From assembly GCA_017626405.1 (NCBI GenBank), contig JAGAIS010000001.1:358885-422884 (forward strand): a stretch of DNA of 64,000 bases, read 5' to 3'. The notes below the pieces were generated by a model. The model saw nothing but the letters and a program-made list of their open reading frames with translations, was not told the DNA's origin and did not search any database. The position numbers and the translations under genes are program-made. The first letter of the stretch is position 1. Every line of letters starts with the position of its first letter. This DNA comes from Bacilli bacterium (GTDB taxonomy: Bacteria > Bacillota_I > Bacilli_A > RF39 > UBA660). This document shows, one piece after another, positions 24,633 to 64,000 of the stretch.

Positions 24633-24662
24633 ATAAGGTATAATTTTTAGTGGGTGCACAAT

Positions 24663-25121
24663 ATGAATAGAAAAACAGTTATAATTGGTATTATTGCATT
24701 AGTTATTGATCAAATAACAAAATCATTAATGCAAATTTATGATGTACACTTTAATATTATAAATGAATTTTTAAGATTAAACTATATACAGAATACGGGA
24801 GCTGCTTGGTCTATTCTTGAAGGTAAGCAGTATTTATTAATAGGAATAACTATTCTCATGTTAATTTTAGTTTATAATATGTCTTTTTCATATGATAATA
24901 ATAAATTGAATAATTTTACCTTCGGAATTCTCTTTGGAGGTATTATTGGCAATTTATTCGATCGTGTTCTTTATGGAATGGTAAGAGATTTTATCGATAT
25001 TAATGTATTTGGGTATAATTTTCCAGTATTTAATATAGCCGATATGTTAATTGTATTGGGTGTAGTAATATTATTAATATCGACATTTAAAGGGGAATTG
25101 AAAAAATGGAAATTGAAGTAG
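24663..25121 (+). CDS. lspA: lipoprotein signal peptidase II
   Basis: NTGAAWSIL, VRDFID and FNIADM motifs; four TM helices. Confidence 0.9.
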   Translation: MNRKTVIIGIIALVIDQITKSLMQIYDVHFNIINEFLRLNYIQNTGAAWSILEGKQYLLIGITILMLILVYNMSFSYDNNKLNNFTFGILFGGIIGNLFDRVLYGMVRDFIDINVFGYNFPVFNIADMLIVLGVVILLISTFKGELKKWKLK

Positions 25122-35930: not shown

Positions 35931-36017
35931 GCCCGTATGGTGGAATTGGTAGACACGTTGGACTCAAAATCCAATGATAGCAATATCGTGTCGGTTCGAG
36001 TCCGACTACGGGCACCA
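35931..36017 (+). tRNA. tRNA-Leu (anticodon CAA), CCA encoded
   Basis: Acceptor GCCCGTA/TACGGGC, anticodon stem TTGGA/TCCAA with loop CTCAAAA, long variable arm (GATA gcaa TATC), T arm GTCGG TTCGAGT CCGAC, discriminator A + CCA. Upstream TGtTATAAT extended -10. Confidence 0.92.
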
Positions 36018-40440: not shown

Positions 40441-40469
40441 TTGACTTTTTCTAATAAAAGTGTTAATAT
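40441..40469 (+). promoter_or_regulatory. sigma-A promoter at the head of the cohesin/giant-protein locus
   Basis: TTGACT, 17 nt, TAATAT. Confidence 0.55.
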
Positions 40470-40520
40470 ATGTAGCCAACAACCGAGAAATGTATCTTTT
40501 GAATAAATTAGGGGGTTTTT

Positions 40521-41222
40521 ATGAAAAAGAAATTATTTTTAGGATTATTTGGTATGACTTTATGTTTACTACCAAATAATGTGCTTGCTTTGAATGCTTC
40601 TGTAAATGTATCTGGAAGCGATACTGTTAATGTTGGAGAAAATTTTAAAATAAGTGTATCAATTAATGATGTTATGGGTACTAATGATGGCATCGAAAGT
40701 TTTAGTGGACAAGTTAGTTATGATAGAGAATTGTTAGAATATATTGGGGTTGAGACAAACAATTCAAACTATGATTTTTTAGTTAATGAAGATAATTTAA
40801 AATTAGCAGCTTTAGATTATACTATGGCAAGAGGTATAAAAGAAGATACAATTATATATACTTTTACTTTTAGAGCAAAAAGTACTGGAAATACTAGTAT
40901 TTCTATTGATAATTTAAAAGTAACTGATTCAAAATCATATTTGGATGTAAATGTTAATTCTTTAAACTTTTCTATTATTAATAAACCAACGACGACTGCG
41001 AAATCAAATATATCTACTAGAGTAATTGCTAGTAAGACATTTAGTAAGAATGCTGTAATAGAAAGTACAACTTTAACTACTGAGACAACTACATCAACTA
41101 GTACAACTATTAAGGCAAACAATGTTGAAATTAAAAAAAATGAAAAACAAACTTTAGTAAAGTCTATAAAGAATGCTATAAGTGATTTCATTAATAAGAT
41201 TAAAAATATATTTAGAGCATAA
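40521..41222 (+). CDS. secreted cohesin-like protein with Thr-rich tail
   Basis: Signal peptide (..NNVLA). Cohesin-like aa 24-153 (nt 40590-40979): LNASVNVSGSDTVNVGENFKISVSINDV...FSGQVSYDRELLEYIGVE...YTFTFRAKSTGNTSISIDNLKVTD. Then KPTTTAKS..TTLTTETTTSTSTT and a basic amphipathic C-terminus. Confidence 0.62.
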   Translation: MKKKLFLGLFGMTLCLLPNNVLALNASVNVSGSDTVNVGENFKISVSINDVMGTNDGIESFSGQVSYDRELLEYIGVETNNSNYDFLVNEDNLKLAALDYTMARGIKEDTIIYTFTFRAKSTGNTSISIDNLKVTDSKSYLDVNVNSLNFSIINKPTTTAKSNISTRVIASKTFSKNAVIESTTLTTETTTSTSTTIKANNVEIKKNEKQTLVKSIKNAISDFINKIKNIFRA

Positions 41223-41302
41223 GATGCTCTTTTTCTTTTGATTTTTTAAAAAAAATATACAATTTAATATAACATATGTTATAATTTTTCTAGGAAGTAG
41301 AG

Positions 41303-41854
41303 ATGTTTATGAAAAAAATTGATTTTAAATTGAATAAAAAGAAAATATTTATTATTGGTGGGGTAGTATTAGCACTTATTATATTAATAGTTGGTTTAGT
41401 TATCTTAGTTCCTAAGTTTACTTATAGTCAAGAAAAAGAATTAACTAAAGAACTTAAAGATTTAGGAAAATCATTTTATGAAGATTACTATTATAATGGT
41501 TTAGCTAAGACTGATGAAGAAAAGATTGAATTTGTTAGTAGATATAAAGATTTGGGAATTAAAGTAAGTTTAAGTAATGCTGCTAGGGTTAAAGTTAATG
41601 AGACTGATGAAATTTTAAAGAAGTTTGTAAACAAGAAAACTGGAGAAGAATGTGATGCTGATAGTTCAATGATTACGATATTCCCAAAAGAACCTTATGG
41701 GGTTAAAGATTACTCAATCAATGTCAACTTAGTATGTGGTTTTGAAAAAGAAACAACTACTACAACTCAAAAAGAAGTTCAAGTAGAATCTAATAAAACT
41801 TCTGAAAAGACTTCAGAAAAAGAAAATGATAAGACGACAAAAAAAGCTCAATAG
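41303..41854 (+). CDS. hypothetical N-terminally anchored protein
   Basis: TM helix IFIIGGVVLALIILIVGLVILV, a ~110-aa domain, then an ETTTTTQ...K/T/E-rich tail. Confidence 0.55.
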   Translation: MFMKKIDFKLNKKKIFIIGGVVLALIILIVGLVILVPKFTYSQEKELTKELKDLGKSFYEDYYYNGLAKTDEEKIEFVSRYKDLGIKVSLSNAARVKVNETDEILKKFVNKKTGEECDADSSMITIFPKEPYGVKDYSINVNLVCGFEKETTTTTQKEVQVESNKTSEKTSEKENDKTTKKAQ

Positions 41855-41877
41855 GAAACTATTTGAGTTTTTTTTAA
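41841..41877 (+). terminator. Rho-independent terminator
   Basis: AGCTCAATAG gaaa CTATTTGAGTT stem with one bulge, T8 run. Confidence 0.55.
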
Positions 41878-41896
41878 TTTTATGATTATTTAAATG

Positions 41897-41925
41897 ATGA
41901 CAAAGGAGTTAAGTTGTAGTATAAT
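41897..41925 (+). promoter_or_regulatory. sigma-A promoter of the 14.45-kb gene
   Basis: ATGACA, 17 nt, TATAAT, about 30 nt upstream of the ATG at 41956. Confidence 0.55.
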
Positions 41926-41955
41926 TTTCTTATATAGGATAGATGGTAAAATTGT

Positions 41956-44900
41956 ATGAGAAGTAAAAGAATTTCAAACAACAATTTTTTATTTAATATA
42001 AAACTAGTATTAACATGTATAATTTTGTTAGTACTTTTTTGCGTTTTTCCAATAGATGTAAAAGCTATTCATGGTTCAAATGTCTATGAATTTTCTTATT
42101 CTGGTAATTATGAGGTGTTTACTGTTCCTAAGAGTGGCTGGTATAGATTGGAAACTTGGGGAGCTCAAGGTGGATATAGAACAAACTCATCTATGGGTGG
42201 AAAAGGTGGATACTCAAAAGGTGAAGTATATTTAGAACGTGGACAAGAATTATATGTTTATGTTGGTGGATTTGGTAAAACTCACGGTGGATGGAATGGC
42301 GGTGGATTTCAACCTGTCACTAAACAATATGGTGGTGGAGCAACTGACATTCGTATTGGCGGAACTTCTTTATATCACAGAATAATTGTCGCTGGTGGTG
42401 GTGGTACTGATGGTGCTACTGGAATAGCTGGTGGCGCTGGAGGGGGATACTGGGCTGGTAATACTTCTGGTGGATGCGGTTCTGGTGGTAATGCAGCTTC
42501 TATGTCTGGTGCTGGTAGTCATCGTGCTTCATTCGGTATTGGTGGAGACGGTGCATCATGGAGTGGCGGACATGCTGGAGCCGGTGGCGGCGGCTGGTAC
42601 GGCGGCGGCGGTGCTGACCCTGATGGCTCTGGAGATGATGACAAAGGTGGTGGAGGCGGATCTGGATTTGCTTGGTCTGCTCAAAATGCCACTTATGCTC
42701 CTAGTGGATACAAGGTTCCAACGAGCCTTTATATGACTAATTTATCATTTGGTACTGGTTCAAGAAGTGGTGATGGTTTTGCAAGAATTACTGAATTAGT
42801 ACTTGATGGTATTACTTCTATTGAAATTAATAGAGGTACTGTTCCAATTGATTTTAAATACAACAAATACACATATTATCTAACGGTCGATAACGATGTT
42901 GAAAATGTTAGATTTAATATTGAAACAGAAGATGACTTTACATTGACTCAAAGCAATAGAAGTACAGATATGACTACTAATTTGAGTGTTACTAATATAA
43001 TTACTTTGACTGATAATGAAACTGGTCTAGTTACTACTTATACAGTTAATGTTAGAAAACAAAATTACTATTTAGCTAATGTTAATGGCAATGTAAGGTA
43101 TAACTACAGTTATACTGGAGAAACAGAAAAGTTCTACGTTCCTGCAACAGGTATTTATACGATTCAAACTTGGGGAGCTCAAGGTGGTTATCGTAATGCA
43201 AATTACCAATATGGTGGACGTGGAGGATATAGTTCTGCTGATATGTACCTTGTAAAAGGAGAAGTTCTATATGTAAATGTTGGCGGACAAGGAAATACCA
43301 TTTCCCTTGATGGAAAAACTAAAGGATGGAATGGTGGCGGTTATGCAACCGGATATTATGCTAATGGTGGTCAATGGTATGAAACTACTAACATTTATGG
43401 TGGTGGAGCTAGTGATGTAAGATATGGTGGAAATACCCTTTATAATCGTGTTGTTGTAGCTGGCGGCGGTGGTGCTGTTGGTGCTACTGGTTATGCTGGT
43501 GCGCCAGCATGGGGATCTTCTGGTACAGGATGTGGTTCTGGTGGTACTGCGGGAGGTTATACTGCTGGTGGTACTTATCGTGCTACATTTGGACGCGGTG
43601 GTGATGGCGGCGCTTGGAGCGGCGGATATGCTGGAGCCGGAGGCGGAGGATGGTACGGCGGAGGCGGTGCTAATCCTGATGGTTCTGGAGATGATGACAA
43701 AGGTGGTGGAGGCGGATCTGGATTTGCCTTTACATCCGGACTTGCTCAATATGTTCCAAGTGGATATTTAGTAACAAGCAAAAATTATCTAACTAACGCA
43801 ACTTTATTGGGCGGAGGTTCTTCTTTCCCTTCACCTAGTGGCTCAAATGAAACTGGACATGGCGGAAATGGTTATGTTAGAATTAGCCCAAAATTAATAA
43901 ATGGTGTACAATCTGTAACTATTAATGATGGAGAAGTACCAATAGATTTTGACTATACAGTTTATACATACTATATTCCTATTCTAGATAGTGTTGAAAA
44001 CGTCAATGTCTCATTTATTCTAAATGATGGATATTCAATGGTTGAAAGCTATCAAGGAAGTTATGTCCTAGGAGATAAAAAAGATTATGTCTATTCTGTT
44101 GATGTTATTAATGATATAACAGGATTAACTGTAAATTATACAATTCATTTTAAGAAACAAAGTGGATATTTAATGAGTGGAACTACTGGTTCTTATGGCT
44201 ATTCTTATAATGGTTATCCACAAAAATTTGTTGCTCCTGCAGCAGGTATTTATACATTTGAAGCTTGGGGAGCTCAAGGTGGACATAGGGGTGCCAATAA
44301 TAGTGGTCGCGGTGGTTACTCGACTGGACAGATGTTTTTAAATAAAGGCCAAATAGTTTATGTCTATGTTGGTTCTAATGGCAATAACAAAGGATGGAAT
44401 GGTGGTGGTTACCAACCTGGCATTGGAATATATGGTGGTGGTGCATCAGATATTCGTGTTGGTGGGCAATCGCTTTACAATAGAGTTCTTGTAGCCGGTG
44501 GTGGTGGTTCCGTTGGTGCTTCTGGAAATTATGGAGGTGTCGGCGGAGGTACTACCGGAGGATATGGTGTCGGTTCTTATGGTGCGTTAGGTACTCCTGG
44601 TACTCAGACTTCTCCTGGTGGCGGAGGAATTGCTGGTTCTTTTGGAATTGGTGGTAATGGTTACTCTGCTAATGGAGGACATGGTGGAGCCGGAGGCGGC
44701 GGTTGGTACGGCGGTGGCGGTTCAACCGTTGATGGTTCTGGCGACGATGATAGAAGTGGTGCTGGAGGTTCTGGTTTTGTATGGACTAGCGATACAGCAA
44801 GTTATGTACCTGATGCTTACCTTGTATCGGAAAACTATTTCTTAATGAGTGCTAAAACTATTGCTGGAAATGCGGCTTTTCCTAATATAAATGGAACAGG

Positions 44901-47900
44901 AAATGAAACGGGTCATGCAGGAAATGGATTTGTTAAAATTTCATTCTCATTATCATATGATTTTGATATTACGGTAAGTGACAATGTTACATTAGATAAA
45001 GAATTTGACTATGATATTAAAGAATATGTAGGTACTTTATCAACTAATGATTCTTCTTTAGTAAATTTCAATGTAAGTGAAAGTGATTCAATATTAAAAG
45101 TAGTTGGAGATGGAACTCAAGAAATTCATGTAGGTGATAATACATTCAATATAGTTATCACTTATGTAAATGGAGCTGTCGAAACATTCACTTATCATAT
45201 TTATCGCGAAGCCAATAATATTGATTATTTGAATAATATTTACTTTGATGAACATCCATTAAGTGAATTTAATGGTGGAGTAGAATTTAATAAAGATACT
45301 TTAGAGTATAATTTAACTTTACCTTATAATATGGATGAATATGAATTGACAGTAGACAAAGGTTCTGCAGATCAAATTATTACTAACTTAGGTCATGTAA
45401 TAAATAAAAACAATAGTTATAGTATTCCAATTTCCGTTACTAATGAAACGGGAAATAGTACTAGAACTTATATTTTAAATATAACTTTACCTCATTCAAG
45501 TGCGTTAAAGAAAATAACGTTTACTAGTAGTGGAGATACTGTGATAGAATTCCCAATTGAGGAAGGTAAGACAGAATTCGATATAGATTTTGAAAGTTAT
45601 ATTGCGAGTATGATTGCAACGCCTGAAGTATATGATGGAGAAGCTAGTGCTGTAGTAACTGGTGATGGTTATATTGAAGATGATGAATATATAATCGAAA
45701 TTGATGTAACTGAACCTCATGTTGATCCAACTCATTATGTGTTGCATATTAGACGTATTACTGTTAGTGGTTACGAAAAAGGATTAACTTACAATGGGAA
45801 TGTCCAAACAGTTATCATTCCTTATAGTCACGAGTATTTATTGCAAGCATGGGGAGCTCAAGGTGGCCGTGGTGGTGGCCGCGGTGGTTACTCTTATGGT
45901 TCCGTATTCCTAGAAAAGGGAACAGTTCTTTATGTTTATACTGGTGGATCTGGTGATTCTGGCGGATTTAATGGTGGAGGTACTTCAAAAGCCGGTTATG
46001 GTGGAGGAGCATCAGATATTCGTGTTGGAACAGATTCATTATACAGCCGTGTTATCATAGCTGGTGGTGGTGGAGGTCACGGAAGTGACGGATGTGCTGC
46101 TGGTGGCGTCGGTGGAGGCTTAAGCGGTGGAGGATCTGCTGGTCAAGGCTCATGTGGAACTCAAGCTGGTGGAGGTACTCAATTAGATGCCGGTGCTTAT
46201 GGTCAATATGGCAATGCTTTAGGAAACAAAGGTAAATTTGGACGAGGTGCTAATGCTCCATCTACTGGTGGTTCTTACTACGGTGGTGGTGGAGGCGGAG
46301 GCTTCTACGGAGGAGGTTCAGGTTCTACTGCTGGTTGGTCAAACGGTGGTGGTGGTGGTTCAGGTTATGTTTATACTACTGAAACTGCATCTTCTGTTGA
46401 AAGAAATACAAACTGGTTATTAGATGAAAATTATTATTTAACTGACGCTGCTACTTTAAGTGGTTCTAATCACTTTGTTAGTCCAAGCGGTTCTATGGAA
46501 ACTGGACATTCTGGAAATGGATATACAAAAATATCTATTCCATATCAAAATAGTGAAAATAATTTCTTAAAGGGAATTGTTTCAAATAAAGGTATCGTAA
46601 CTCCTGAAGAATGGGATTATGATGAGACAACTTACTATTTAAATCTAAGTAGTAGTGATGTTGAAATCAATATTGAAGGTATACCTGCAGATGGAAAAGC
46701 TAGTGTAGTAGGAAACGGAAACTACGTTATTGAAGCTGGTACTACTGAGATTAATTTAATCGTAACTAGTGAAAGTGGACACACTAGAACTTATACATTA
46801 ATTGTTATAAGAGATGCGGATTCTAATCCAAATCCTAAAAATATCAGTGTTAATGGTATGCTTGAACAATATTGTTCATTAATTGAAGGAGCTTGTGATT
46901 ATTCATTTGATGTTGATGTTCATGAATATGATATTACAGTTCCTTATCAAATAAGAGAAATTGTAATGGTTGTTAATAAAGGACATTATTTCCAAACTGT
47001 AAATGGTGATGGATTATATGCCCTTAATGGTGGAATGAACGATATTGTTATTAATATAACAAGTGAAGATCAAAGTTCTTCTTCAGAATATGTTTATCAT
47101 ATTAATAGAGATATGACTGGAAATGCAGATTTGAGAGTTTTAAGACTTACTGATCCAGAATATGAATTGAACTATTCATATAATGTTAGTGATTATTATG
47201 TTACTATTCCTCATGAAAAGGAAACGGTTACATTAGAAGCTATTGCAGATGATCCAAATGCTACAGTTAATATAGTATATCCTGATGGAGAATTGGATTA
47301 TGGTACTAATGTAGTTTCTATAACTGTTACTGCTCAAAATGGAGTTACTAAAGAATATCGAGTATTTGTAAATCGCCTTGAAAGTAATAATGCATTCTTA
47401 AATGAATTAGTTATTTCTAATATAACTGATGGTAAAGATGAAATTATTACACCAACGCCAGAATTTAATAAAATGAACTTAACATATAATATGGTTTTGG
47501 AAAACGATGTTACTAAGATTAAATTTGATGGTGTGGCTGAAGATGAATTTGCAAGTATTGAAGGATTAGGGGAGTACGAATTAAATGTTGGCAATAACAC
47601 GATTAAAATTACGGTTGTTGCTCAAGATGAGAGTAAATTAACTTATACATTTAATGTAAATAGAAAAGCCAATGCAAATGCATTACTATCTTCATTATCG
47701 ATGGATGAACATGCGTTTACTGAAGCTTTTGAATCAGAAAAATTTGTTTACTATGTATATGTGACTGGAGAAATTACTACTGCTACTATTAATGCAACTC
47801 CAGAAAAAGATACATCTACATATCAGATAATTGGCAATACAAGTAGTTTAGTTGCCGGTAAAAATGAGATTGTTGTTCGTGTAACTGCCGAAGATGGAAC

Positions 47901-50900
47901 ACAATGTGATTATCGTATTATTATTAATCGTACAGGTTATAATGATTCAACATTGTTAACGCTTGATGTTACAAATGGAATAGAGTCTTATACATTTACT
48001 CCTCCATTTGATCCTCTATACGATACATACTCACTAAATCTTCCTAATGATGTTACAAATGTCATATTAACAGCTACTTCTGATGCTGCTAAGCGAGTAA
48101 AAATAGGTTCTTCTAGTGTATTTGTTAAGAAGATTAACTTATTAACTGATAACCCTTCAGTTACATCTATAACAGTTACTGCTGAAGACGGAACAGTTAC
48201 TACTTATAATGTTACAATTACTCGTGAGCTATCTAGTGATAACTCTCTAGATGTATTAGAAGTGGCAGATCATGAATTAATACCAAATTTTGAAAGTGAT
48301 GTCTTAAATTACAGTTTTACAACATATGAACATTCACTTTCTATTTCGGCAATACCAACTAATCGATTTGCTAAAGTAGTTATAAGTGATAATTATAAAA
48401 ATCTAGTTCCGGGAGAAAATACTATAACTATTGATGTTACTTCAGAAACTGGAGATAAGAGAACTTATACATTGACAGTTACTCGTGAATTATCAAGCGA
48501 TAATACATTAAAAGAATTGTCTATTAGAGGAAATCAATTAATACCAGATTTTGATCCTACAGTAGATAATTACTCATTTGTAACTTCTTATGAAGGATTA
48601 GATATTTCTGCTATTCCAAATAATAAATATGCAAGTGTAGAAATATTAGGTAATATTAAACCTTTAAACGAAGGACTTAATGTTATTGAGATAAAAGTAA
48701 CTGCTGAAAATGGAGATATCAAATACTATACGATTTCTGTAACTCGAGTATTAGATGATAATTCATTCCTTAGTAATTTGACTACTAACGAAGGCATAAA
48801 TGAAACATTTGATAAAGAAGTTCTAGATTATACTTTAACAACTGAGAGTGAGTCTATTTCAATCATAGCTACTTTAGAAAGTGAATTTTCTAAATATGAT
48901 ATTTTAGATAGTGATTCTAATAAAGTAACTAGTATGCCAACTAATTTAAAATTAGGTGATAATGTATTTAGTATTGTTGTTACAGCTCAAAATGGCTTAA
49001 TAAAAACTTATAATTTAACTATTACTCGCAATTTGAGAAGTGATGCTAAATTAAAAGGTTTAAGTCCAATAAACGAAAATTTTGTAAGTACAGTTTATAA
49101 CTATACTTATACTACTACTGAACATGAAGTTACTATTACTCCAGTTTTAAGTGATGAATTACATGCAACTTACAAAATATTCAATGTTGATTATGATGAG
49201 GTTTCAAATAAAGTATCATTAAATACTGGATCTAATGTATTCTTGATTCAAGTAACTGCTGAAGATGGTACTGTTCTTATTTATAATTATGTAGTTACTC
49301 GCAATCCAAAAGATATAGCTACTATTGAATCTGTATCATTTGAAACTAGTCCAAAGATTGATAAGGATAATTTTGTATATTCTGTTACAACTGATGAAAC
49401 AAGTTTAAATTTTGATGATATGGTATTAACAGATCCTTATTCAACCGTATTAATTGATGGCAATAGTGATTTTGTCAATGGTGAAGAATCAATTGTAACC
49501 GTTATAGTTACTAGTGAATCGGGTAAGGTAAAAAATATTTATACATTTAATGTAACTAAAGTTATTTCTCATGATTCAACTTTAAAGAATATTAAACTAG
49601 GGGAATATGAATTATCTCCAAAGTTCAATAGAGATACGTTGGAATATGAAGTATTTGTTCCAAATGATTTACAGAATGTTACTTTGGAAGCATATTCTTC
49701 TAAAAACACTTCTATTATTAAGAGTATACTTTTAGATAGTGAAGAATTAGTAACTTCTTATAATAAAGATTTTAATGAAAGTATAACAATGCATCCAATA
49801 GCTGATGATCCAATTATTACTATATTAGTAGAAGCTGAAGATGGTACAACAAGTACGTATAAATTAAATGTTTTAAGTGAAGACTTAATTAATAATTATT
49901 TAAAAACTTTAACTGTAAGCTGTGGAGAATTAAATCCAGTATTTGATAAGAAGACTCAAGAATATGTTGTTTATATTCCGGATGATCAAACTACATGTAC
50001 AGTTGAAGGTGTTTCTGAAGTTAATATTGCTACTGTTACAGGAAATGGAGAATATACACTTCCATTAGATCAGAAGAGTGTAAGAGCTAATATTGAAGTA
50101 ACAAGTGCTAGAGGAGAAAAAAGAGTTTATACAGTAAGAATTAGAAGAGGTATTTCTAGTGAATCTAGATTATCTGATCTATCTATTAAGGGTTATAGTT
50201 TTGATATTCCTTTTGATCCTGATACTTTTGAATATAATGTTGTACTACCAAATCAAATAAGTCCATTAGATGAAAACTATTTTGAATATACACTTATGGA
50301 TGAAGATGCAACAATAGATTTCCCAAGTTTAGATTTAGTAACTAATGTTGTTAATAAATATGTTATAGTTGTTACTGCTGAAGACGGAGTAACTAAGAGT
50401 GCATATACTATTAATGTAACTAGAACTAAGAGTGATGATACTACTTTAAATACTGTTGATGTCATTGTAGGAAGTGAAACAATTACATGTACAATTGATG
50501 CTGATACAAAGAGTTGTACAGTTGATGTTCCTGCTGATACTAGTGATTTTGAAATTAACGCCCATCTATCTAATAATCAAAGCGTTAATCCAGCTAATAT
50601 TAGTAAACATGTATTTAATTCAGCTGATTATACTAAGACAGTAGAATTAAAAGTAATTGCTGAAAATGGTGTTGATTTTGAAAACTATACAGTTAACTTA
50701 AACAGATTATATTCAGATAACAATGATTTAATGAGTATCGAAGTTAACTATGTTCCTTTAGATGGATTTAGTAGTTCAAAACTTACTTATAATAAAACTG
50801 TTATGGGAACATTATCACAAGTAATGATAAGTGTAACTTTAGCTGATTCTAAAGCAACAGTTGTTACTGATTTAAGTCAGCCATTTGCATTAAATTATGG

Positions 50901-56406: not shown

Positions 56407-56436
56407 GAAACCTTAAAAATAAGGTTTCTTTTTTTT
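56405..56436 (+). terminator. Rho-independent terminator
   Basis: AAGAAACCTTA aaaa TAAGGTTTCTT perfect 11-bp stem followed by T6. Confidence 0.8.
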
Positions 56437-56539
56437 GCAAACTGTTTACATTTTTGATGTCAAAGATAGTAGAAAATTGACTTACTATTTGTTATACTTT
56501 AAATATAATAGGGAGAAGTAGAATGTAGAGGTTTTTTAT

Positions 56540-59500
56540 ATGAGAAAAAATAATAGATTATTTTCATCAATTTTATTTTTTGTAATCACTATCATATTTG
56601 CTATTCCGCTTAGTGTTAATGCTGCGGGTGAACATGGTTTGTCGACTAAGGCTGTAGTATGTGATTCGAGTATTTATAATAGTTCGGATTATGAAGAAAA
56701 TGCGGCTAATTGTTATGGTGATTATATAGAAGGTAATTTAAATACATATATTAAAGAAAATGGAACAGTTATTGATCCAGGAACTTTTGTCATGATTGTA
56801 GTTGAATATCATTTAGGCGCTGAAAGTGAAGTCACAGGTATTAATGCTACATTGCAATTTGATAATAATGTTTGGACTCCACTTACTGATTCTACAGGCG
56901 AGTTTTTAGGACTTGATAACGCTGAATCTTTTCCTCAAGGTACTAAATTAAAGAAAGCGCAATGGAACTCGTATGTTACATTAGATGATAGTACAGGTAA
57001 TATTATCGTATATGTTGATGAGGCTTCAACTTACAAATATACTTTAGATGATGATTATGAAATTGGTTATTTTTTCATGACAGTAAATTCTGATGTTCCT
57101 GCTGGTAATGTAGATATTACTTTTAAAAAAGATAATATAGGAGGAACAAAGGTTGTTGATGGTGATGGAAATAGACTTGATTATGTAACTGATGATATAT
57201 CATTTACTATTCCTGGCGAAGCAACAAGTCATGATGCATCTTTAGGTTCTCTATCTATTACTAATTCTGATACTGCATATATATTGGATCCTTCTTTTAC
57301 GGCTGGATCAGTTGAGAATAAAGTATATAATACGGTAGTTCCTTATGATATATCTCAAATAATGATTAATGCAACAACTAATGATGCGGGTGCTAACATA
57401 CTTCCTGCCGATTTAGGTAAGAAGACTTTGAGCCTTGGTATGAATACATTTACAATTACAATTACATCTGCATTTGGTAATGTTGAAACATATACGGTTA
57501 ATATATATAGATTGAGTAATGATGCTTCATTAAACTCTATCACTTTAACAAATGGAGTATCATTTGGAAATATGATAAGTGGACAATATACATATAGTAC
57601 AAGTGTTACTTATGCTACTAGTTCTACGAGTATTAGTGCAACACCTACACATACTAATGCATTTGTCGATAGTGGTGAAGGAACTTGGAATCTAACAAAT
57701 TTTGGAACACAAACAAATACTAAAACTGTTGTTGTTAAGGCTGAAAACTGTAAAAGTGAATATAGTTCGGTACCTGGAAATACTTGTACTGTTCAAAATT
57801 ATAATTTAACTATTAATCGTGATGCCCCTAGCACAAATGCTTATTTGAAAAATATTACTGTTGACACTCAGTCTTTAAATCAATTTTCTAATGGAAAGGT
57901 AACTTTTAATAAGACAATTTTAGAATATGATTTAGGGGAAGTTGCTTATGATAAGACAAGTGTTAATCTAAATGCTTTAGTAGATGATACTGGTAAATCT
58001 AAAGTTTCTGGATTGGGAAACAAAACATTGAATGTTGGAGAAAATACTTTCAATATTGATGTTGTTGCTGAAGATGGAAGTACGACTCTAACATATACAG
58101 TTAAGATATATAGATTGAGTAATGATTCGTTGCTTAAGAGTTTAAAAGTTGAAAGTGTACCACAAACTAGTGCTAGTATAGTTCCATCATTTAATTCTTC
58201 AGTTAATGAGTATAAATTTACTTACGATGAAACTGTTGGATCGTTTACATTAACTGCTGATGTAAATGATACTGATAAAGCTAAAATAGCTATTTATGAT
58301 ACAACTCCTAGTGAATATGTATTAAATTCTAATTCGGCTTCTTTTGGACTTGATACTACTAGTGTAGTTGTTAGCGTTCAAGCCGAAGATGGAACTATTA
58401 ATAACTATATAGTAAACTTTGAAAGACAAAAGAGTAGTGATACATCACTTCAAAGTCTATCTTTAGATAATGGAATACTAAAACCTGATTTTACAAGTGA
58501 TAATCGTCTATATTCAACTGTAGTAGAGCCTAATATTGATCATATTGAAGTCAATGCTGTACCTAACTCAGTATATGGAACTATTAAAGAAATAAAAGGA
58601 AATAATAACTTACAATTTGGTACAGGTAATCAAATTGAAGTTATTGTTGAAGCTGAGGATAAGAAAACTTCTTCATATGTAATTAATGTTGAGAGAAAAA
58701 AATATAATGATGCTACTTTGAGTGATATTAAGGTAAATGGTGTAAGCATTGAGGACTTTGATCCATCTACTAATAGTTATGTATTAGAAGCAGTACCTTT
58801 TGAGACAACTAGTATTAATATTGAGGGTATTAAAAATAATGAATATGCAACTGTAGACGGCAATGGTGATATTTCATTAAGTACTGGAGAAAATGTTATT
58901 ACAATAAAAGTAACTGCTCAAAATGGAGACGTAAATAATTATACTTTAAATATAAAAAGAGCAAAGAATAGTGATAATTCAATATCTAATTTACGTGTCA
59001 AAGGATATAATACTACATTAGTTGGACCTGATAATTCAATTATTGTTTATGAGGTAACTTTACCAAATGAAATATCAAGTATTGTTGCTTCTGATGTAAC
59101 ATTTGATTATCCTAGTGATGCTACAAATGTTTATAAGGATGAAAGTCTTGTATTATCAACTACTAATTCAAATGATTATAGCTTTACGGTTGTATCGGAG
59201 TCTGGATCTCCACAAATCTATTCGATTAAAATAAAAAGGGAAAAGTCTAGTGCAGCTGAAATTAGTAAAGTTGTATTATCTATAGGTGAAGATGATTCAA
59301 GATATTGTTTAATGGATAGCACTAATAAGTGTAAGATAGAAGTTCCTGTAGATACTTTGAATTTCTCACTTTACTCATTTATTTCAGATGAAGCTACAAT
59401 TAGCCCAGCTCAAGATACAGAATTTGAACTTCCTGCAAGTCAATCAGAAAAGGATGTAGTATTGATTGTTACTGCTGAAGATGGTACAAGTAATACTTAT

Positions 59501-62500
59501 ACGGTAACAGTAGCAAGACAAAAATCATCTAATAACGATGCAAGTGATATAACGATGCAAATAGGTGATGGTCCATCTTCGACAATTGATAATTTCAATA
59601 GTACTAAGTTAAACTATGATATTACTGTTAATGGAGATACATCGAGTGTTGTTATTGGCGCAGTAGTTGATGATCTAGGCAAAGCTAAAATTGCTATTAC
59701 TAATTCTACGAATGGTACTCCAGAAACAATCAATTATGTAACGGATTCTTCTAGTAAGACTATTGAATTAGAGTTTGATAGGAGAAATACTGTTGAAATA
59801 TTTATTAAAGCAGAAAATGGTCAAGTTAAGACTTATACTCTTTATATTACTCGCTTACATAGAAGTGATGCTACATTATCTAATTTAACTGTCAATGGAA
59901 TTACAGTTCCGGGATTTACTTCTGGCGAAGTAGCTCCTAAAACTTACACTTTAAGCAATGTTGATTATAATACTTCTAATTTAAATATTATGGCTATTCC
60001 AACTGATGAAAATGCAACTAAAACTGGAGATGGAATTCAATATTTAAATACTGGAGATAATAGTATATTAATTACAGTTACAGCACATGATGGAACTATT
60101 GGTATTTATACAATAGAAGTAAATCGTGCAAAGAATTCTGATAAGCGTATTAAAGATATAACTCTTGCTGGTGTTAGTGCAACTTATAATAGTTCTAGTG
60201 GACATTATGAAGTGACTGTTCCAAATAATATAGACATAGCTAATAGTACTAATTTAGTTGTTAATGTTTATGAAGGTAAAGAAAACTATGATGCATTAGC
60301 GAGTGTTACTTTTGATCCTAAAGATTTATTAACTACTGAATTAAATTCTATGGACATTAAAGTAACTGCTGAAGATAATAGTGTATCAACTTATGTATTG
60401 GATATTACGAGAACTAAATCTAATGTTGCTACATTGTCTAGTTTAACAGTTAGTAATGGTTCATTTAATCCATCTTTTAATAGCAACTTATTTGAGTACA
60501 CAGTAACTGTTCCGGTTGATTTAACTGAATTTGATGTTAGTGCAGTTACTACTGAAGGACATGCAATTATCAATTCAGGTACTGGTCACTATGAAATGAC
60601 AGAATCAAATATGGATATCAGTGTTTTGGTTACTAGTGAAGATTTATCTGTTACAGAAACTTATATATTACATGTTACTAGAACTAAATCATCAGTTAAT
60701 ACTTTAAATAGTATTACTGTAACTAGTGGAAGTGATGAGACTTTAATAAATTATTCTTTATCTCCTGAATTTTCTAGTAATGTAGTTAATTATACAGTTA
60801 ATGTTCCAGGTGATATTGAAGAAGTTGATATTTCTGCTATCAAAACTGATCCTTTAGCAACTATTGAATCCGGTTTAGGAAGTGTACCATTAAATGTAGG
60901 CGACAATACAGTTTTAATTAAAGTCAAATCTGAAAGTGGAGCTTATAATACATATACTATTAAGATTGTTAGAGCTAAGAAATTTAATAATTATTTATCT
61001 TCATTAGTTGTATCTAGTGGAAGTGGAGATACATATGTTGACTATAATATTCCTTTTGATAAGGATACTCTAGAATATGTGATACCTGAACTTACTAATA
61101 ATATTACAAGTTTAAAAATAGATGCTACAACTGAAGATGGCGATGCTACCATAACTGGTACTGGTTCAGTTAGTCTAGCTGTTGGGGATAATGATTTAAA
61201 TGTTATCGTAACAGCACAAGATGGAACTAAGAGAACTTATGTTATTAAAGTTAAAAGAGCAGCAAGTGATAATAATTTCTTGAAAAATCTATTTGTAAAT
61301 GGCTATACATTAAGTCCAAAATTCAATAAGAATACTTTAAATTATGAAGTAGAAGTACTTGCAACGAAAGCAACTTTCTCATCATCTGATGTAACTGCTA
61401 TACTTGAAGATTCTACTGCTTCAATTAGCTATGATGAAACTATGAACTTGAGTTTTGTTCCAAGCGATAATTTCTTTAAAATTACAGTAACAGCTCAAAA
61501 TGGTGACGAAAGAGTATATACGATTAATGTAAAGCGCAAAAAGAGCAGTGATGCTACACTTAAATTATTAAATCTAACTGGAGGTTCTTTAAATCCAGAG
61601 TTTAATAAGAGTAGAAATGAATATACATTGACTCTTCCTTATGGTGGAAAAGAATTTACTATTGAAGGTATTGCTAATGATGATAATGCTACTGTTTCTG
61701 GAAATGGTACTTACAATATTGATAGTATTATTACACCTTCAATAATAATCACAGTAACAGCCCAAGATGGAACATTTAATAGTTATAAATTTAATATTGT
61801 AGAAACTAAGAGTAATGATGATTCACTTGCAAGTTTAAGTGTTCAAGGTTATCCATTAGATAAAACATTCGTTACAACTACATTTAGTTATTCGATAGGA
61901 GATGTTCCTTTTGGAACTACAGGTTTAATAATAAATGCTAGTGCAACTAATCCTGAAGCTACTATTAAATATTATGTTGACAATGTATTACAAACTAATA
62001 ATATTGTTGCTTTACCTCAAACTCCGGGCGAGAAAGTTATAACTGTTAGAGTTACGGCTGCTGATGGAATTACTCAAAGTAAAGTATATAGTATTAAATA
62101 TAATTTAGTATATTCAGATAATACTTATCTAAAGACTTTAAGTCCTAGTGTTGGAACATTAGATTTCTTAAAGACAAAACAAACTTATACTTTAAATTTA
62201 GCTAATTCGGTTGATTCAGTAACATTTACTATTGAAACTGAGCATCCGGGAGCTAGTGTATCAGTTAATGATGGTGATAGGTCATTTACTACACCAGCAA
62301 AAACGGTAACGATTAATGATTTAGTAGTAGGAGATACTTTATTGAAAGTTGTTGTATATCCTGAAAATGGAAATGATAGTGAAGCTCGATTGTATCAAGT
62401 AGTTATTAATAGAGCTGAACCTGAAGCTAGTAGCGATAATTTCCTTTCATCTTTAAGTGTCGATGGTTATACATTGAGTCCTGAATTCAACGCAAGTACT

Positions 62501-63451
62501 AATGAATATAGTATTGGCAGCATACCTTATGCACTTGAAACATTAACAATTAATGCAACATTAAATGATGGTAAGGCTAATATAAAATATCTTGTTAATG
62601 GAGTTAACCAAGAAAATAATGTGGTAAATGTTCCAAGAGTTGAAGGAACGGGTGCTATAGTTGTTCAAGTAATAGCTGAAAATGGTAATGTCAATAATTA
62701 TAAGATTACATATAATAAGATACCTTCAAGCAATGCTTATCTATCTGAATTAATTGTAAGTGAAGGAAGTATAGAGTTTAATAAGGAAACATTCAACTAT
62801 GAAGTAAATGTTCCGAGAAATGTTAATTCCGTAGATATTACAGCTAGAGTAGAGGATGAAACATCAATTTTAAAAATGAATTCATATATTTATTCATCTC
62901 CTCATACTTTAACTATTTCTAACTTAAAACCTGGAAATACGGAAGTTATTATATTAGTTACTGCTGAAAATGGAACTACTTATACTTACGTAGTTACTTT
63001 GAAAAAGGAAGCAAATGTTAGTGAAGTTATTACATCAGTACAATACGGACATACGATAGTAAATGATTATATCGAGTCAGTTAAGTTACACGACACTGTA
63101 TTAAAATTAAAAAATGAATTGGATAATGAAAATCAATACTTAGAGATTTGGACAGCTGATGATCAACAAAAATTATCTGATGGTGATACTTTAGCTACTG
63201 GAATGATAGTTAAATTGATAATCGATGGAGAAGAGAAAGATCGTAAACTTATTGTAATTAAAGGTGATATAGTTGGCGATGGTGAAGTTGAACTATTCGA
63301 CGCCGTACAAATTGTTAACCATGTACTTGGTACTAAGATGTTGGAAGGCGCATATAAAGAAGCAGGATTGATAGTAAGTACAGATGATGTTGAACTATTC
63401 GATGCTGTACAAATTGTTAACCATGTACTTGGTACTAATTTGATGTATTAG
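56540..63451 (+). CDS. giant secreted protein (2303 aa): cohesin-like N-terminal module + 20 cadherin-like modules + pre-dockerin module + dockerin
   Basis: Signal peptide (..LSVNA). N-terminal module aa 35-224. Twenty repeat units counted by eye (nt 57230-63007). C-terminal dockerin. Confidence 0.9.
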   Translation: MRKNNRLFSSILFFVITIIFAIPLSVNAAGEHGLSTKAVVCDSSIYNSSDYEENAANCYGDYIEGNLNTYIKENGTVIDPGTFVMIVVEYHLGAESEVTGINATLQFDNNVWTPLTDSTGEFLGLDNAESFPQGTKLKKAQWNSYVTLDDSTGNIIVYVDEASTYKYTLDDDYEIGYFFMTVNSDVPAGNVDITFKKDNIGGTKVVDGDGNRLDYVTDDISFTIPGEATSHDASLGSLSITNSDTAYILDPSFTAGSVENKVYNTVVPYDISQIMINATTNDAGANILPADLGKKTLSLGMNTFTITITSAFGNVETYTVNIYRLSNDASLNSITLTNGVSFGNMISGQYTYSTSVTYATSSTSISATPTHTNAFVDSGEGTWNLTNFGTQTNTKTVVVKAENCKSEYSSVPGNTCTVQNYNLTINRDAPSTNAYLKNITVDTQSLNQFSNGKVTFNKTILEYDLGEVAYDKTSVNLNALVDDTGKSKVSGLGNKTLNVGENTFNIDVVAEDGSTTLTYTVKIYRLSNDSLLKSLKVESVPQTSASIVPSFNSSVNEYKFTYDETVGSFTLTADVNDTDKAKIAIYDTTPSEYVLNSNSASFGLDTTSVVVSVQAEDGTINNYIVNFERQKSSDTSLQSLSLDNGILKPDFTSDNRLYSTVVEPNIDHIEVNAVPNSVYGTIKEIKGNNNLQFGTGNQIEVIVEAEDKKTSSYVINVERKKYNDATLSDIKVNGVSIEDFDPSTNSYVLEAVPFETTSINIEGIKNNEYATVDGNGDISLSTGENVITIKVTAQNGDVNNYTLNIKRAKNSDNSISNLRVKGYNTTLVGPDNSIIVYEVTLPNEISSIVASDVTFDYPSDATNVYKDESLVLSTTNSNDYSFTVVSESGSPQIYSIKIKREKSSAAEISKVVLSIGEDDSRYCLMDSTNKCKIEVPVDTLNFSLYSFISDEATISPAQDTEFELPASQSEKDVVLIVTAEDGTSNTYTVTVARQKSSNNDASDITMQIGDGPSSTIDNFNSTKLNYDITVNGDTSSVVIGAVVDDLGKAKIAITNSTNGTPETINYVTDSSSKTIELEFDRRNTVEIFIKAENGQVKTYTLYITRLHRSDATLSNLTVNGITVPGFTSGEVAPKTYTLSNVDYNTSNLNIMAIPTDENATKTGDGIQYLNTGDNSILITVTAHDGTIGIYTIEVNRAKNSDKRIKDITLAGVSATYNSSSGHYEVTVPNNIDIANSTNLVVNVYEGKENYDALASVTFDPKDLLTTELNSMDIKVTAEDNSVSTYVLDITRTKSNVATLSSLTVSNGSFNPSFNSNLFEYTVTVPVDLTEFDVSAVTTEGHAIINSGTGHYEMTESNMDISVLVTSEDLSVTETYILHVTRTKSSVNTLNSITVTSGSDETLINYSLSPEFSSNVVNYTVNVPGDIEEVDISAIKTDPLATIESGLGSVPLNVGDNTVLIKVKSESGAYNTYTIKIVRAKKFNNYLSSLVVSSGSGDTYVDYNIPFDKDTLEYVIPELTNNITSLKIDATTEDGDATITGTGSVSLAVGDNDLNVIVTAQDGTKRTYVIKVKRAASDNNFLKNLFVNGYTLSPKFNKNTLNYEVEVLATKATFSSSDVTAILEDSTASISYDETMNLSFVPSDNFFKITVTAQNGDERVYTINVKRKKSSDATLKLLNLTGGSLNPEFNKSRNEYTLTLPYGGKEFTIEGIANDDNATVSGNGTYNIDSIITPSIIITVTAQDGTFNSYKFNIVETKSNDDSLASLSVQGYPLDKTFVTTTFSYSIGDVPFGTTGLIINASATNPEATIKYYVDNVLQTNNIVALPQTPGEKVITVRVTAADGITQSKVYSIKYNLVYSDNTYLKTLSPSVGTLDFLKTKQTYTLNLANSVDSVTFTIETEHPGASVSVNDGDRSFTTPAKTVTINDLVVGDTLLKVVVYPENGNDSEARLYQVVINRAEPEASSDNFLSSLSVDGYTLSPEFNASTNEYSIGSIPYALETLTINATLNDGKANIKYLVNGVNQENNVVNVPRVEGTGAIVVQVIAENGNVNNYKITYNKIPSSNAYLSELIVSEGSIEFNKETFNYEVNVPRNVNSVDITARVEDETSILKMNSYIYSSPHTLTISNLKPGNTEVIILVTAENGTTYTYVVTLKKEANVSEVITSVQYGHTIVNDYIESVKLHDTVLKLKNELDNENQYLEIWTADDQQKLSDGDTLATGMIVKLIIDGEEKDRKLIVIKGDIVGDGEVELFDAVQIVNHVLGTKMLEGAYKEAGLIVSTDDVELFDAVQIVNHVLGTNLMY
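57230..63007 (+). repeat. array of 20 cadherin-like beta-sandwich modules
   Basis: Same consensus as in the 4816-aa protein, for example LSNDASLNSITLTNG...; KSSDTSLQSLSLDNGILKPDFTSDNRLYSTVV...VEAEDKKTSSYVINVER. Confidence 0.75.
63263..63436 (+). other. dockerin module with duplicated helix segment
   Basis: GDIVGDGEVELFDAVQIVNHVLGT ... LIVSTDDVELFDAVQIVNHVLGT. The second Ca loop is degenerate. Confidence 0.65.
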
Positions 63452-63461
63452 GAGGAGTAAA

Positions 63462-64000
63462 ATGAAAAAGTTTAAAGCAAAATTTCAAAGTATATTATTA
63501 GTATTATTATTAATAATTAGTTGTTTTGGTGGAATTACTGATGTTTTTGCTACATCTACTGCCAAAGTTGAATTCGATGGAAACTCTTCAGTTTCCGTTG
63601 GATCCAATATAACTGTTAAATTAAAAGTTACATCAGTAACTTCTGATCAGGCAAGCTATAATGGTGTCGTAAGTTTGAGTGGTAACCTTTCTTTTGATTC
63701 GACATATTTAGAATATGTTTCAGCAACTCCAGCTACTAGTCCTTATGCTTTTAGTATTAATAAGAACAACAATTATAAAATCGCTGGAATGGATTTTTCA
63801 GGAAGTAATGGAATTAAATCATCGACAGTTGTTTTTACTTTTGTATTTAAGGCATTGAAGGCAGGAACAACTCAAGTTACATTAACTAATGCAAAGTTAA
63901 CAGATTCAACTTTCCAATATACAACTAGTGTAGTTCCTAAAAATATAACTATTGGTGGTTCTAATCCAACTACACCTACAACTCCAACAACTCCAACGAC
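63462..64000 (+). CDS. secreted cohesin-like protein with Pro/Thr linker, 5' part only (runs off the right edge)
   Basis: GGAGGAG SD, ATG at 63462, 10 nt after the previous stop. Own translation: MKKFKAKFQSILLVLLLIISCFGGITDVFATSTAKVEFDGNSSVSVGSNITVKLKVTSV...LSFDSTYLEYVSATP...VVFTFVFKALKAGTTQVTLTNAKLTD...GGSNPTTPTTPTTPT. Confidence 0.7.
   Translation, partial: MKKFKAKFQSILLVLLLIISCFGGITDVFATSTAKVEFDGNSSVSVGSNITVKLKVTSVTSDQASYNGVVSLSGNLSFDSTYLEYVSATPATSPYAFSINKNNNYKIAGMDFSGSNGIKSSTVVFTFVFKALKAGTTQVTLTNAKLTDSTFQYTTSVVPKNITIGGSNPTTPTTPTTPT

Follow-up and report, generated by a model that had tools for sequence, protein, structure and literature searches.

A 64,000-nucleotide (nt) stretch of the genome of a Bacilli bacterium (NCBI GenBank assembly GCA_017626405.1, contig JAGAIS010000001.1, positions 358,885 to 422,884 of the forward strand), hereafter called the window and numbered from its first letter, carries a locus of cohesin and dockerin genes at 40521-64000. 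Polysaccharide-degrading machines are the textbook setting of cohesin-dockerin pairs, and the many non-cellulosomal occurrences of these pairs are still functionally obscure. Here we describe the proteins of this locus, among them two giant repeat proteins (A and B) and two cohesin proteins with predicted membrane anchors (g5 and g6), and weigh the reading that they are the parts of one surface fibre.

Organization of the locus

The locus comprises five co-oriented open reading frames (ORFs; lengths in amino acids, aa):

40521-41222, + strand: g1, 233 aa; signal peptide and cohesin
41303-41854, + strand: g2, 183 aa; small N-terminally anchored protein
41956-56406, + strand: A, 4816 aa; secreted giant protein
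56540-63451, + strand: B, 2303 aa; secreted, with a cohesin and a dockerin
63462-64000 (window edge), + strand: g5; third cohesin gene, its frame open at the edge

These frames lie exactly where the original prediction, made without database searches, had placed them, and its cohesin, dockerin and module calls all hold under hidden Markov model (HMM), profile or predicted-fold tests. Its count of 58 cadherin-like modules and four glycine-rich domains (GRDs) was obtained again (38 modules in A and 20 in B) with a self-built HMM, which was iterated on the locus's own modules and which also set the borders of the GRDs. The five genes had further been said to lack glycoside hydrolase (GH), carbohydrate-binding (CBM), S-layer homology (SLH) and LysM modules as well as a C-terminal LPXTG motif; indeed, no Pfam match to any of these modules was found in them, and no LPXTG occurs near any C-terminus. 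Pfam scans of g1, g2, A, B, g5 and the downstream gene g6 (see below) gave no match to GH, carbohydrate esterase (CE) or polysaccharide lyase (PL) families, and no plant-polysaccharide GH, CE, PL or CBM was detected in the 74 kb around the locus. Nor did these proteins include a multi-cohesin scaffoldin with a CBM, as each cohesin protein carries a single cohesin and has no CBM match.

Architecture of the giant proteins A and B

Protein A begins with a signal peptide, which is followed by four GRDs with 1, 1 and 3 cadherin-like modules between them, a run of 33 further modules, a Big_2 domain, an X module and a dockerin. Its main features are:

42067-46551, + strand: tip region of A; four GRDs at aa 38-283, 369-648, 735-1002 and 1268-1532
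46552-55692, + strand: stalk of A; 33 consecutive cadherin-like modules, aa 1533-4579
55708-56175, + strand: Big_2 domain (aa 4585-4650) and X module (aa 4655-4740) of A; the X module is kept in A orthologues
56176-56403, + strand: dockerin of A; two near-identical 22-residue segments, GDIDGDGDVSVADVTKIRNVVL and GDIDIDSDISVADVTKTRNFVL

In Pfam, A matches Cadherin-like PF12733 with 600 bits (cut-off 24.2) and ALK_LTK_GRD PF12810 with 407 bits in four stretches (cut-off 24.5), while the Big_2 match is weak (19.6 bits, under the cut-off of 22.8). The four GRDs, which account for a local rise of the GC content to 0.37-0.41, are 45-58% identical to each other and show a weak direct match to the structure of the Caenorhabditis elegans ALK homologue (7lir). 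Single-sequence phmmer searches of the first GRD, the g5 cohesin and the B cohesin against PDB sequences returned nothing useful, and profiles were needed. The cadherin-like modules have a mean identity of only 32% (maximum 52%), so the repeats are old; a recent repeat expansion was rejected on account of this low identity and of protein lengths that are fixed among strains.

The dockerin of A, which had been predicted as a canonical two-segment one, proved to be so: it scores above the Dockerin_1 cut-off (24.6 against 22.9 bits), its segments are duplicated, and its calcium (Ca) loops DIDGDGDVSVAD and DIDIDSDISVAD retain the acidic residues at positions 1, 3, 5 and 12. A profile of A-type dockerins matched PDB dockerins with E values of 2.6e-18 (8x39) and 5e-13 (1ohz).

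Protein B, which looks like an adaptor, consists of a signal peptide, a cohesin, 20 cadherin-like modules (Cadherin-like, 365 bits; cut-off 24.2), an X module and a dockerin:

56624-57226, + strand: divergent cohesin of B, aa 29-229; from predicted fold and profile
57227-63007, + strand: stalk of B; 20 cadherin-like modules, aa 230-2156
63008-63448, + strand: X module (aa 2157-2235) and dockerin (aa 2236-2303) of B; from profile and predicted fold

Both ends of B fail the Pfam cut-offs, but profile and fold searches return only cohesins for the N-terminus and only dockerins for the C-terminus, as originally proposed. The B cohesin, which has an N-terminal extension of ~45 aa with a helix and a conserved Cys pair, reached 15.6 bits (E 0.019; cut-off 24.1) in the single-sequence Pfam search. 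With a 19-sequence alignment of B N-termini, however, the five best PDB matches of the profile were all cohesins (E ~1e-3), and the AlphaFold2 model made from the same alignment had a predicted local distance difference test score (pLDDT) of 93.2 and a predicted template modelling (TM) score (pTM) of 0.89. A Foldseek search of the PDB with this model gave cohesins for all of the top 50 matches (probability 1.00, TM-score up to 0.74 on the target), including those of Ruminococcus flavefaciens ScaC and Clostridium acetobutylicum CipA, type I and type II cohesins of Clostridium thermocellum and cohesins of Clostridium perfringens. The B and g5-type cohesins are very divergent, with an hhalign probability of 1.7% between them; a protein search with the N-terminal 233 aa of B alone found no match, and homologues were obtained with full-length B as the query.

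At the other end, the two helices of the B dockerin are identical over 16 residues (VELFDAVQIVNHVLGT twice). Dockerin_1 covers only its first half with 19.0 bits (cut-off 22.9), and a 17-sequence profile of B-type dockerins matched PDB dockerins with an E value of 7e-9, to the ScaB adaptor dockerin 4uyp. The AlphaFold2 model of the B X-dockerin unit (28-sequence alignment; pLDDT 92.3, pTM 0.80) had dockerins as its first 22 Foldseek matches, the best being 4uyp_B from Acetivibrio cellulolyticus ScaB (TM-score 0.82, root-mean-square deviation 1.5 Å, 30% identity). Its Ca loops are degenerate in this genome (DIVGDGEVELFD and LIVSTDDVELFD), with several coordinating residues missing, and more canonical in B orthologues elsewhere (DTSGDGEIDLFD). 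For the conserved X module of ~85 aa that directly precedes the dockerins of both A and B, no homology to known type II or type III X modules or to that of CttA was detected, and Foldseek matched the dockerin part only.

Membrane anchors g5 and g6

Within the window, g5 codes for a signal peptide, a cohesin (63552-63971) and the start of a PT linker, and the Pfam Cohesin match (41.0 bits, cut-off 24.1) bears out its assignment as a third cohesin protein with such a linker. Its ATG lies 10 nt after the stop codon of B, and its ribosome-binding site (AGGAGGAG) overlaps that stop. An exact-match look-up of B led to a 228-kb metagenome contig that extended the sequence by 10 kb past the window edge (locus L001). 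The full g5 protein (L001 16923-19124) has 733 aa: after the signal peptide, cohesin and PT linker come four cadherin-like modules, then a hydrophobic helix with RKRK directly behind it, and finally ~130 aa of cytoplasmic tail. The next gene, g6 (L001 19399-20925, 508 aa), is a paralogue of g5, with a cohesin 93% identical to that of g5, three cadherin-like modules, a transmembrane helix and a short basic tail. A profile of the g1, g5 and g6 cohesin family found the C. perfringens NagJ cohesin 2jh2 (also 2ozn) as its best PDB match (E 3e-4).

By their predicted topology, g5 and g6 are type-I membrane proteins with the tail inside the cell: both, like the u2 protein described below, end in a transmembrane helix followed by basic residues. 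This placement of the cohesins explains why SLH, LysM and LPXTG are absent. The stalks of these anchors could plausibly span the cell wall. The g5 tail, which has no Pfam match, ranks with the best-conserved parts of the protein. Across 11 homologues, which are only 50-60% identical overall, the tail is strongly conserved, and the transmembrane helix is kept too; motifs of the tail are PIIEVKPEFNFGSKN..DDDV and PYDPYDETVTK..ELIDAI. This conservation suggests an intracellular partner.

A wall-less, Mollicutes-like host was considered as the reason for transmembrane anchoring, and this idea is weakened by the presence of EzrA, of a GH73-like hydrolase with an SH3 domain and of a YlxY-like fragment. 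The EzrA gene lies at 13791-15530. The ORF at 7601-8362 has an N-terminal transmembrane segment and a partial match to YlxY (a polysaccharide deacetylase family linked to sporulation; E 3e-10, far below the cut-off), and together with EzrA it hints that the host may have a wall and perhaps sporulates. Peptidoglycan has been predicted in most RF39 and in part of ML615J-28 and RFN20, and sortases are missing in two of these orders (PMC10868615); such a lack of sortases in some uncultured Bacilli orders is a possible rationale for membrane anchoring.

Two sets of genes near the anchors are recorded here as well. Genes for signal peptidase II and a rhomboid protease are found at 24654-25121 and 26032-27168, 14-16 kb upstream of the locus; speculatively, the rhomboid protease might in principle release single-pass transmembrane anchors such as g5, g6 and u2. 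About 6 kb downstream of g6, at L001 25148-26912, three consecutive small paralogues (201, 179 and >179 aa) each have an N-terminal hydrophobic segment and no Pfam match.

Accessory proteins g1 and g2

The two short genes at the start of the locus had been described as a secreted cohesin and a small N-terminally anchored protein, and both descriptions stand. In g1, a signal peptide is followed by the cohesin (aa 24-160, 40590-41000; Pfam Cohesin PF00963, 46.0 bits on the trimmed sequence, cut-off 24.1), a Thr-rich linker and a C-terminal amphipathic peptide (..SDF..KIKNIF), which is kept in all six orthologues compared; g1 has no membrane anchor of its own. The translation of g2 shows an N-terminal transmembrane helix, and its ectodomain of ~110 aa contains two invariant Cys. 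Even a 36-sequence profile of g2 found no Pfam or PDB relative. The g2 family comprises 523 representative clusters at 50% identity, all of 130-270 aa, and is unannotated, without a Pfam model or a solved relative; besides the two Cys it has an invariant Tyr, Gly and Pro. In related genomes, g2 always adjoins a cohesin gene of the locus. In the proposed assembly, g1 would be a soluble cohesin with a conserved peptide and g2 as a small N-anchored protein, both conserved accessories. As a guess, the g1 peptide may bind g2 as a further anchoring point, or g1 may cap free dockerins.

Conservation of the locus in gut bacterial genomes

Taking one genome per species and mapping the modules of the window onto all ORFs of the loci found, we detected the locus in 20 distinct loci of species-representative genomes. 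The recurring order is an A-like gene (X module and A-type dockerin), a B-like gene (cohesin, X module and B-type dockerin) and a g5-like gene (cohesin, transmembrane helix and tail), with g1 and g2 lying upstream or just past the anchor genes. No plant-polysaccharide GH, CE, PL or CBM was seen in the genes adjoining these 20 loci, as far as these were scanned. Most of the loci come from gut metagenome-assembled genomes (MAGs) titled uncultured Tenericutes, Bacilli, Bacillales or Mycoplasma sp., and the source guts are human (including Hadza), mouse and ruminant. In three others, all with a GC content of 27-30%, the title names Ruminococcus, Clostridiales or no taxon at all (one locus each). 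In metagenome searches, g5 and B each returned over 100 orthologues, in clusters of which several have hundreds of members.

Three loci (L015, L016 and L017) are titled Saccharibacteria or Nanosyncoccaceae and have a GC content of 44.5%, versus 25-33% in the other loci, and they retain g2, two giant dockerin proteins and an anchor that has the conserved tail. This composition argues against mis-binning or a recent transfer; overall, these loci speak for either a transfer long ago between two gut lineages with reduced genomes or mislabelled bins.

The small genes next to the anchors vary between loci. Proteins of 297-300 aa are encoded directly after the anchor gene in L004 (12166-13059), L006 (12227-13126), L007 (13279-14178), L009 (2456-3358) and L010 (2327-3220); they contain a cohesin and a dockerin in L006, L007 and L009, while only a dockerin was detected in L004 and only a cohesin in L010. 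A dockerin protein of ~256 aa comes next in L004, L006 and L010. Some loci without A in its usual place have the 297-300-aa proteins with both modules instead.

Within the species itself, A is 4816 aa long in 9/9 full-length variants and B 2303 aa in 6/6, all of them >99% identical. The original prediction had suggested checking by comparative genomics whether the locus is strain-variable; in these variants the repeat number is fixed, and what little variation they show falls mostly in the outermost GRD. Among the nine A variants, this GRD (42067-42804) has 11 variable positions in 246 compared with 20 in 3047 for the stalk, a ~7-fold enrichment of variable amino acids (Fisher p 7e-6).

Predicted pairing of dockerins and cohesins

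Within one protein, the two segments of the B-type dockerin are 0.68 identical, compared with 0.41 for segment 1 versus segment 2 across species; the corresponding values for the A-type dockerin are 0.63 and 0.34. Concerted evolution of duplicated segments is typical of type I dockerins with a dual binding mode, and here it implies that the binding surface is under selection.

Partial Mantel tests were then applied to the pairwise module distances over 11 loci, with four non-interface segments (the N- and C-terminal parts of the B stalk, the g5 stalk and the g5 tail) as controls. The g5 cohesin co-varied with the B dockerin (partial r 0.54, p 0.003) and with the B X module (partial r 0.69, p 0.0006), and the B cohesin co-varied with the A dockerin (partial r 0.42, p 0.002). 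The cross pairs were not significant, namely the B dockerin with the B cohesin (partial r 0.13, p 0.18) and the A dockerin with the g5 cohesin (partial r ~0.14). Judged from these distances, the dockerins co-evolve specifically with the cohesin encoded alongside them. Together with the ribosome-binding site of g5 on the B stop codon, these pairs support a chain that runs from the membrane through g5 or g6 to B and on to A.

A second cohesin-dockerin pair 35 kb upstream

Another dockerin gene lies next to another cohesin gene in the upstream part of the window:

4053-6002, + strand: u1; secreted GH73-like protein with a dockerin
6011-7573, + strand: u2; transmembrane-anchored cohesin protein, starting 9 nt after u1

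In u1, a signal peptide is followed by an SH3_3 domain (36.6 bits), a GH73-like N-acetylglucosaminidase domain (~4848-5264), a cadherin-like module, a stretch of ~85 aa and a dockerin (5814-5981; Dockerin_1, 45.8 bits). The ~85-aa stretch is possibly an X module, although it was not detected as one. The enzyme domain matches the Atl glucosaminidase 6fxo (E 3e-10) as well as SagB and AtlE, all staphylococcal GH73 enzymes; the match to the NCBIfam SagB model (E 5.6e-11) is far below that model's cut-off. u2 carries a signal peptide, a cohesin (6080-6424), a cadherin-like module (Cadherin-like, 47.6 bits), a domain of ~170 aa, a transmembrane helix and a charged cytoplasmic tail. The cohesin-like module that had been marked at 6080-6421 is recognized by a family-specific cohesin HMM over the full model length (E 2e-5), but it has no Pfam cohesin match.

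In this pair, a peptidoglycan hydrolase seems to be displayed by a cohesin that is anchored in the membrane. A dockerin protein beside a membrane-anchored cohesin is thus an arrangement used at least twice here, once for an enzyme, and u1, a GH73-like peptidoglycan glucosaminidase, is the only dockerin enzyme in the window. The cohesin-dockerin network of the organism is therefore not enzyme-free, though the locus under study is. Just upstream of the pair, the ORF at 2282-3931 encodes a highly acidic, coiled-coil-rich protein of 549 aa with no family match.

Chromosomal setting and transcription signals

The window has a GC content of ~28%, and its housekeeping genes, which lie on the + strand, include those for DNA polymerase I, Fpg, EzrA, two aminoacyl-tRNA synthetases and a sigma factor, as well as LspA, the rhomboid protease, LexA, MiaB and ScpA/ScpB. 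With such flanks, the locus is chromosomal and shows no obvious mobile element, and an origin from a mobile element was rejected on the same ground. A tRNA-Leu(CAA) gene at 35931-36017, ~4.5 kb upstream of the locus, bears no sign of an integration site.

Three transcription signals were recorded between the genes:

41214-41230, + strand: terminator-like hairpin and T-run after g1; palindromic, the same hairpin being scored on both strands (0.1 expected in shuffles)
41897-41925, + strand: sigma-70-like promoter match upstream of A; ATGACA, 17-nt spacer, TATAAT (11/12, consensus only)
56405-56430, + strand: strong terminator-like hairpin of 11 pairs after A, followed by a T-run (0.1 expected in shuffles)

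The last of these is the strong terminator that had been noted after the first giant gene. The further proposal that the giant genes are transcribed separately, for which the evidence consists of consensus patterns, is borne out in part. The terminator patterns and the promoter match before A are in its favour, but the promoter-like site before B has only 9/12 consensus matches, and B and g5 look co-translated rather than separate. Promoter-like sites were no commoner in either of the two scanned regions than in shuffled sequence.

A proposed surface fibre and its alternatives

We consider it likely that the locus specifies a non-enzymatic surface fibre which is held together by non-covalent cohesin-dockerin joints and rooted in the cytoplasmic membrane, with the pairings predicted from module co-variation. 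The original prediction had preferred such a fibre to a polysaccharide-degrading cellulosome, and this preference gains support from the transmembrane anchor, the conserved gene order and the co-evolution of dockerins with cohesins. In the proposed assembly, g5 and g6 would sit in the membrane, and their cadherin-like modules (four in g5, three in g6) and PT linker would hold the cohesin off the cell, probably across the wall. The C-terminal X-dockerin of B, which may be made from one message with g5, would plug into the g5 or g6 cohesin, and the 20-module stalk of B would present its divergent N-terminal cohesin to receive the dockerin of A. A would then add 38 modules and, at the far end, four ALK/LTK-type GRDs as a ligand-binding tip. 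Both dockerins, with two near-identical helices that evolve in concert, would follow the type I pattern of dual binding modes. A beta-sandwich module such as an immunoglobulin-like domain measures ~4 nm; at this value per module, the extended assembly may reach ~250-300 nm. From this architecture, the fibre would most likely serve to adhere to mucus or glycans of the host, to food particles or to other microbes.

Several observations weigh against this fibre. The modules that co-vary are also chromosomal neighbours, so that part of the signal could come from a shared history of recombination, and with related sequences partial Mantel tests are known to be liberal. Three related loci (L004, L006 and L007) keep B and its cohesin, but A is missing between g2 and B, so that the A dockerin is not obviously the partner of the B cohesin there. 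In the B dockerin of this genome, Val stands at loop position 3 and the second loop reads LIVSTDD, and such degenerate loops leave its Ca-dependent folding not assured. The locus further has more cohesins (g1, B, g5 and g6) than dockerins (A and B), which means that other partners must exist elsewhere in the genome, and the Pfam description of PF12733 proposes that its modules bind carbohydrate.

The last two points would fit an enzyme-display scaffold resembling a cellulosome or amylosome, in which the cadherin-like arrays bind polysaccharide and the spare cohesins (those of g1, g6 and perhaps B) recruit dockerin enzymes encoded elsewhere; the dockerin-bearing u1 in the same window, together with the small dockerin proteins and the 297-300-aa cohesin/dockerin adaptors downstream of g5 in five related loci, would fit it as well. 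We nevertheless regard such a scaffold as improbable, given that plant-polysaccharide enzymes and CBMs are missing from the 74 kb and from the scanned neighbours of the 20 related loci, that the sole enzyme found acts on peptidoglycan and is encoded beside a cohesin of its own, and that each scaffold protein here bears one cohesin, in contrast to the arrays of enzyme-integrating scaffoldins. With both a cohesin and a dockerin on one chain, B might also polymerise head-to-tail into filaments or a mesh-like coat that A merely caps, and the loci that keep the B cohesin with no adjacent A would suit such a polymer. In the Mantel tests, however, the B dockerin follows the g5 cohesin and not that of B. 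Known adaptor scaffoldins avoid self-binding by giving their cohesin and dockerin different specificities, and the B dockerin is most similar to that of ScaB (4uyp), an adaptor of this self-avoiding type; we therefore hold polymerisation to be quite improbable. It is very improbable that the modules no longer pair, A and B being released as soluble or matrix proteins (of a biofilm, spore coat or exosporium) and their co-location being historical. The degenerate Ca loops and sub-threshold Pfam score of the B dockerin would agree with such a loss, but decaying modules would not be expected to keep their presence and order across genomes in which the proteins are only 30-55% identical, to maintain dockerin helices that stay identical within a protein while diverging between species, or to co-vary as cohesin and dockerin do.

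The surface fibre may also be taken further, in a version that we find rather doubtful: a three-tier fibre of ~0.3 micrometre, with its tip coupled to the cell interior through the g5 tail, would serve reduced-genome gut bacteria to attach to partner cells, on which the nearby hydrolase would act. Its hosts would be uncultured Bacilli or 'Tenericutes' lineages and, by ancient transfer, gut Saccharibacteria. If this were true, cohesin-dockerin pairing would serve host-dependent bacteria generally as an attachment organelle, not as an organiser of enzymes.

Being conserved and enzyme-free, with a parts list that suggests a specific assembly order, the locus offers a clean test case for non-cellulosomal cohesin-dockerin pairing. 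That its hosts devote ~25 kb of coding sequence to a single surface structure implies that the structure matters to their lifestyle; these hosts are common though uncultured, as the hundreds of metagenomic members in some orthologue clusters indicate. A transmembrane helix with a conserved tail would add a third route of scaffoldin anchoring besides SLH modules and sortase; to our knowledge, a scaffoldin anchor of this kind, with a cytoplasmic tail, has not been characterised so far. The ALK/LTK-type domain is placed in a bacterial context, at an exposed tip that varies between strains. Finally, engineering may find candidates for orthogonal connectors of high mechanical strength in dockerins that link such very long stalks.

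Comparison with known systems

With cellulosomes that use adaptor scaffoldins (A. cellulolyticus ScaA/ScaB/ScaC; C. thermocellum CipA and its anchoring scaffoldins), the locus shares type-I-like dockerins with a duplicated F-hand segment, cohesin beta-sandwiches and the hierarchical logic of anchor, adaptor and cargo, including one protein with both a cohesin and a dockerin; the B dockerin is closest to that of ScaB (4uyp), and the B cohesin to those of R. flavefaciens ScaC and C. acetobutylicum CipA. It differs in having no glycoside hydrolases or CBM and one cohesin per protein instead of an array, in a cargo of 58 cadherin-like modules and glycine-rich domains, in an anchor made of a C-terminal transmembrane helix and a conserved cytoplasmic tail rather than SLH modules or sortase, and in its hosts, which are uncultured gut MAGs labelled Tenericutes or Bacilli and not cellulolytic clostridia.

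The CttA-ScaE pair of R. flavefaciens also presents a non-enzymatic adhesive protein through an X-dockerin dyad on a single-cohesin anchor, an arrangement that is predicted here from sequence. The B X-dockerin is modelled confidently as one unit (pTM 0.80), and its X module co-varies with the anchor cohesin, but no homology between this X module and that of CttA was detected. For cellulose binding CttA has dedicated modules, and sortase anchors ScaE. The present locus, in contrast, has no cellulose-binding module or LPXTG, uses a membrane-protein anchor, inserts an extra adaptor tier and has stalks of 20-38 modules. The NagJ/NagH complexes of C. perfringens are a further non-cellulosomal use of cohesin and dockerin in a gut-associated low-GC Firmicute, with a likeness that is limited to the similarity of the g1/g5-family cohesins to NagJ: secreted glycoside hydrolases are joined there, whereas giant non-enzymatic repeat proteins and membrane anchors would be joined here.

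Giant single-chain adhesins, such as the RTX adhesins LapA and MpIBP, Salmonella SiiE and staphylococcal Ebh, likewise have a long stalk of diverged beta-sandwich modules that projects a ligand-binding region, and a low identity of neighbouring modules (mean 32% here) is also common among them. They consist of one polypeptide held by a type I secretion plug, by sortase or by a membrane segment, whereas three polypeptides would share this task here, and Pfam scans of the locus proteins found no RTX or other defining modules of these families. As for the tip, the four N-terminal domains of A match the ALK/LTK receptor domain PF12810 (407 bits). The GRD of animal ALK/LTK is part of the ectodomain of a receptor tyrosine kinase and binds ALKAL cytokines; here, by contrast, four copies stand at the tip of a bacterial surface protein.

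Among published reports, two come close: a giant Omnitrophota ORF with nine non-cellulosomal dockerins, for which a role as an adhesin was proposed ('may serve as adhesins'; PMC10066038), and a dockerin-domain protein that is essential for the epibiotic growth of the cultivated saccharibacterium Southlakia epibionticum (PMC10633639). These reports give no cohesin partner, anchor or hierarchical locus, and are likened to A and B by description; MAGs labelled Saccharibacteria, the group to which Southlakia belongs, account for three of the loci described here. Non-cellulosomal occurrences of cohesin and dockerin are also on record from genome surveys (Peer et al. 2009, as cited in PMC10066038). 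Full-text literature searches found no description of a system such as the one presented here. The parts and the hierarchical logic of the locus are already known; it differs from known systems in the cargo, the mode of anchoring, the splitting of a giant adhesin into pieces that plug together, and the hosts.

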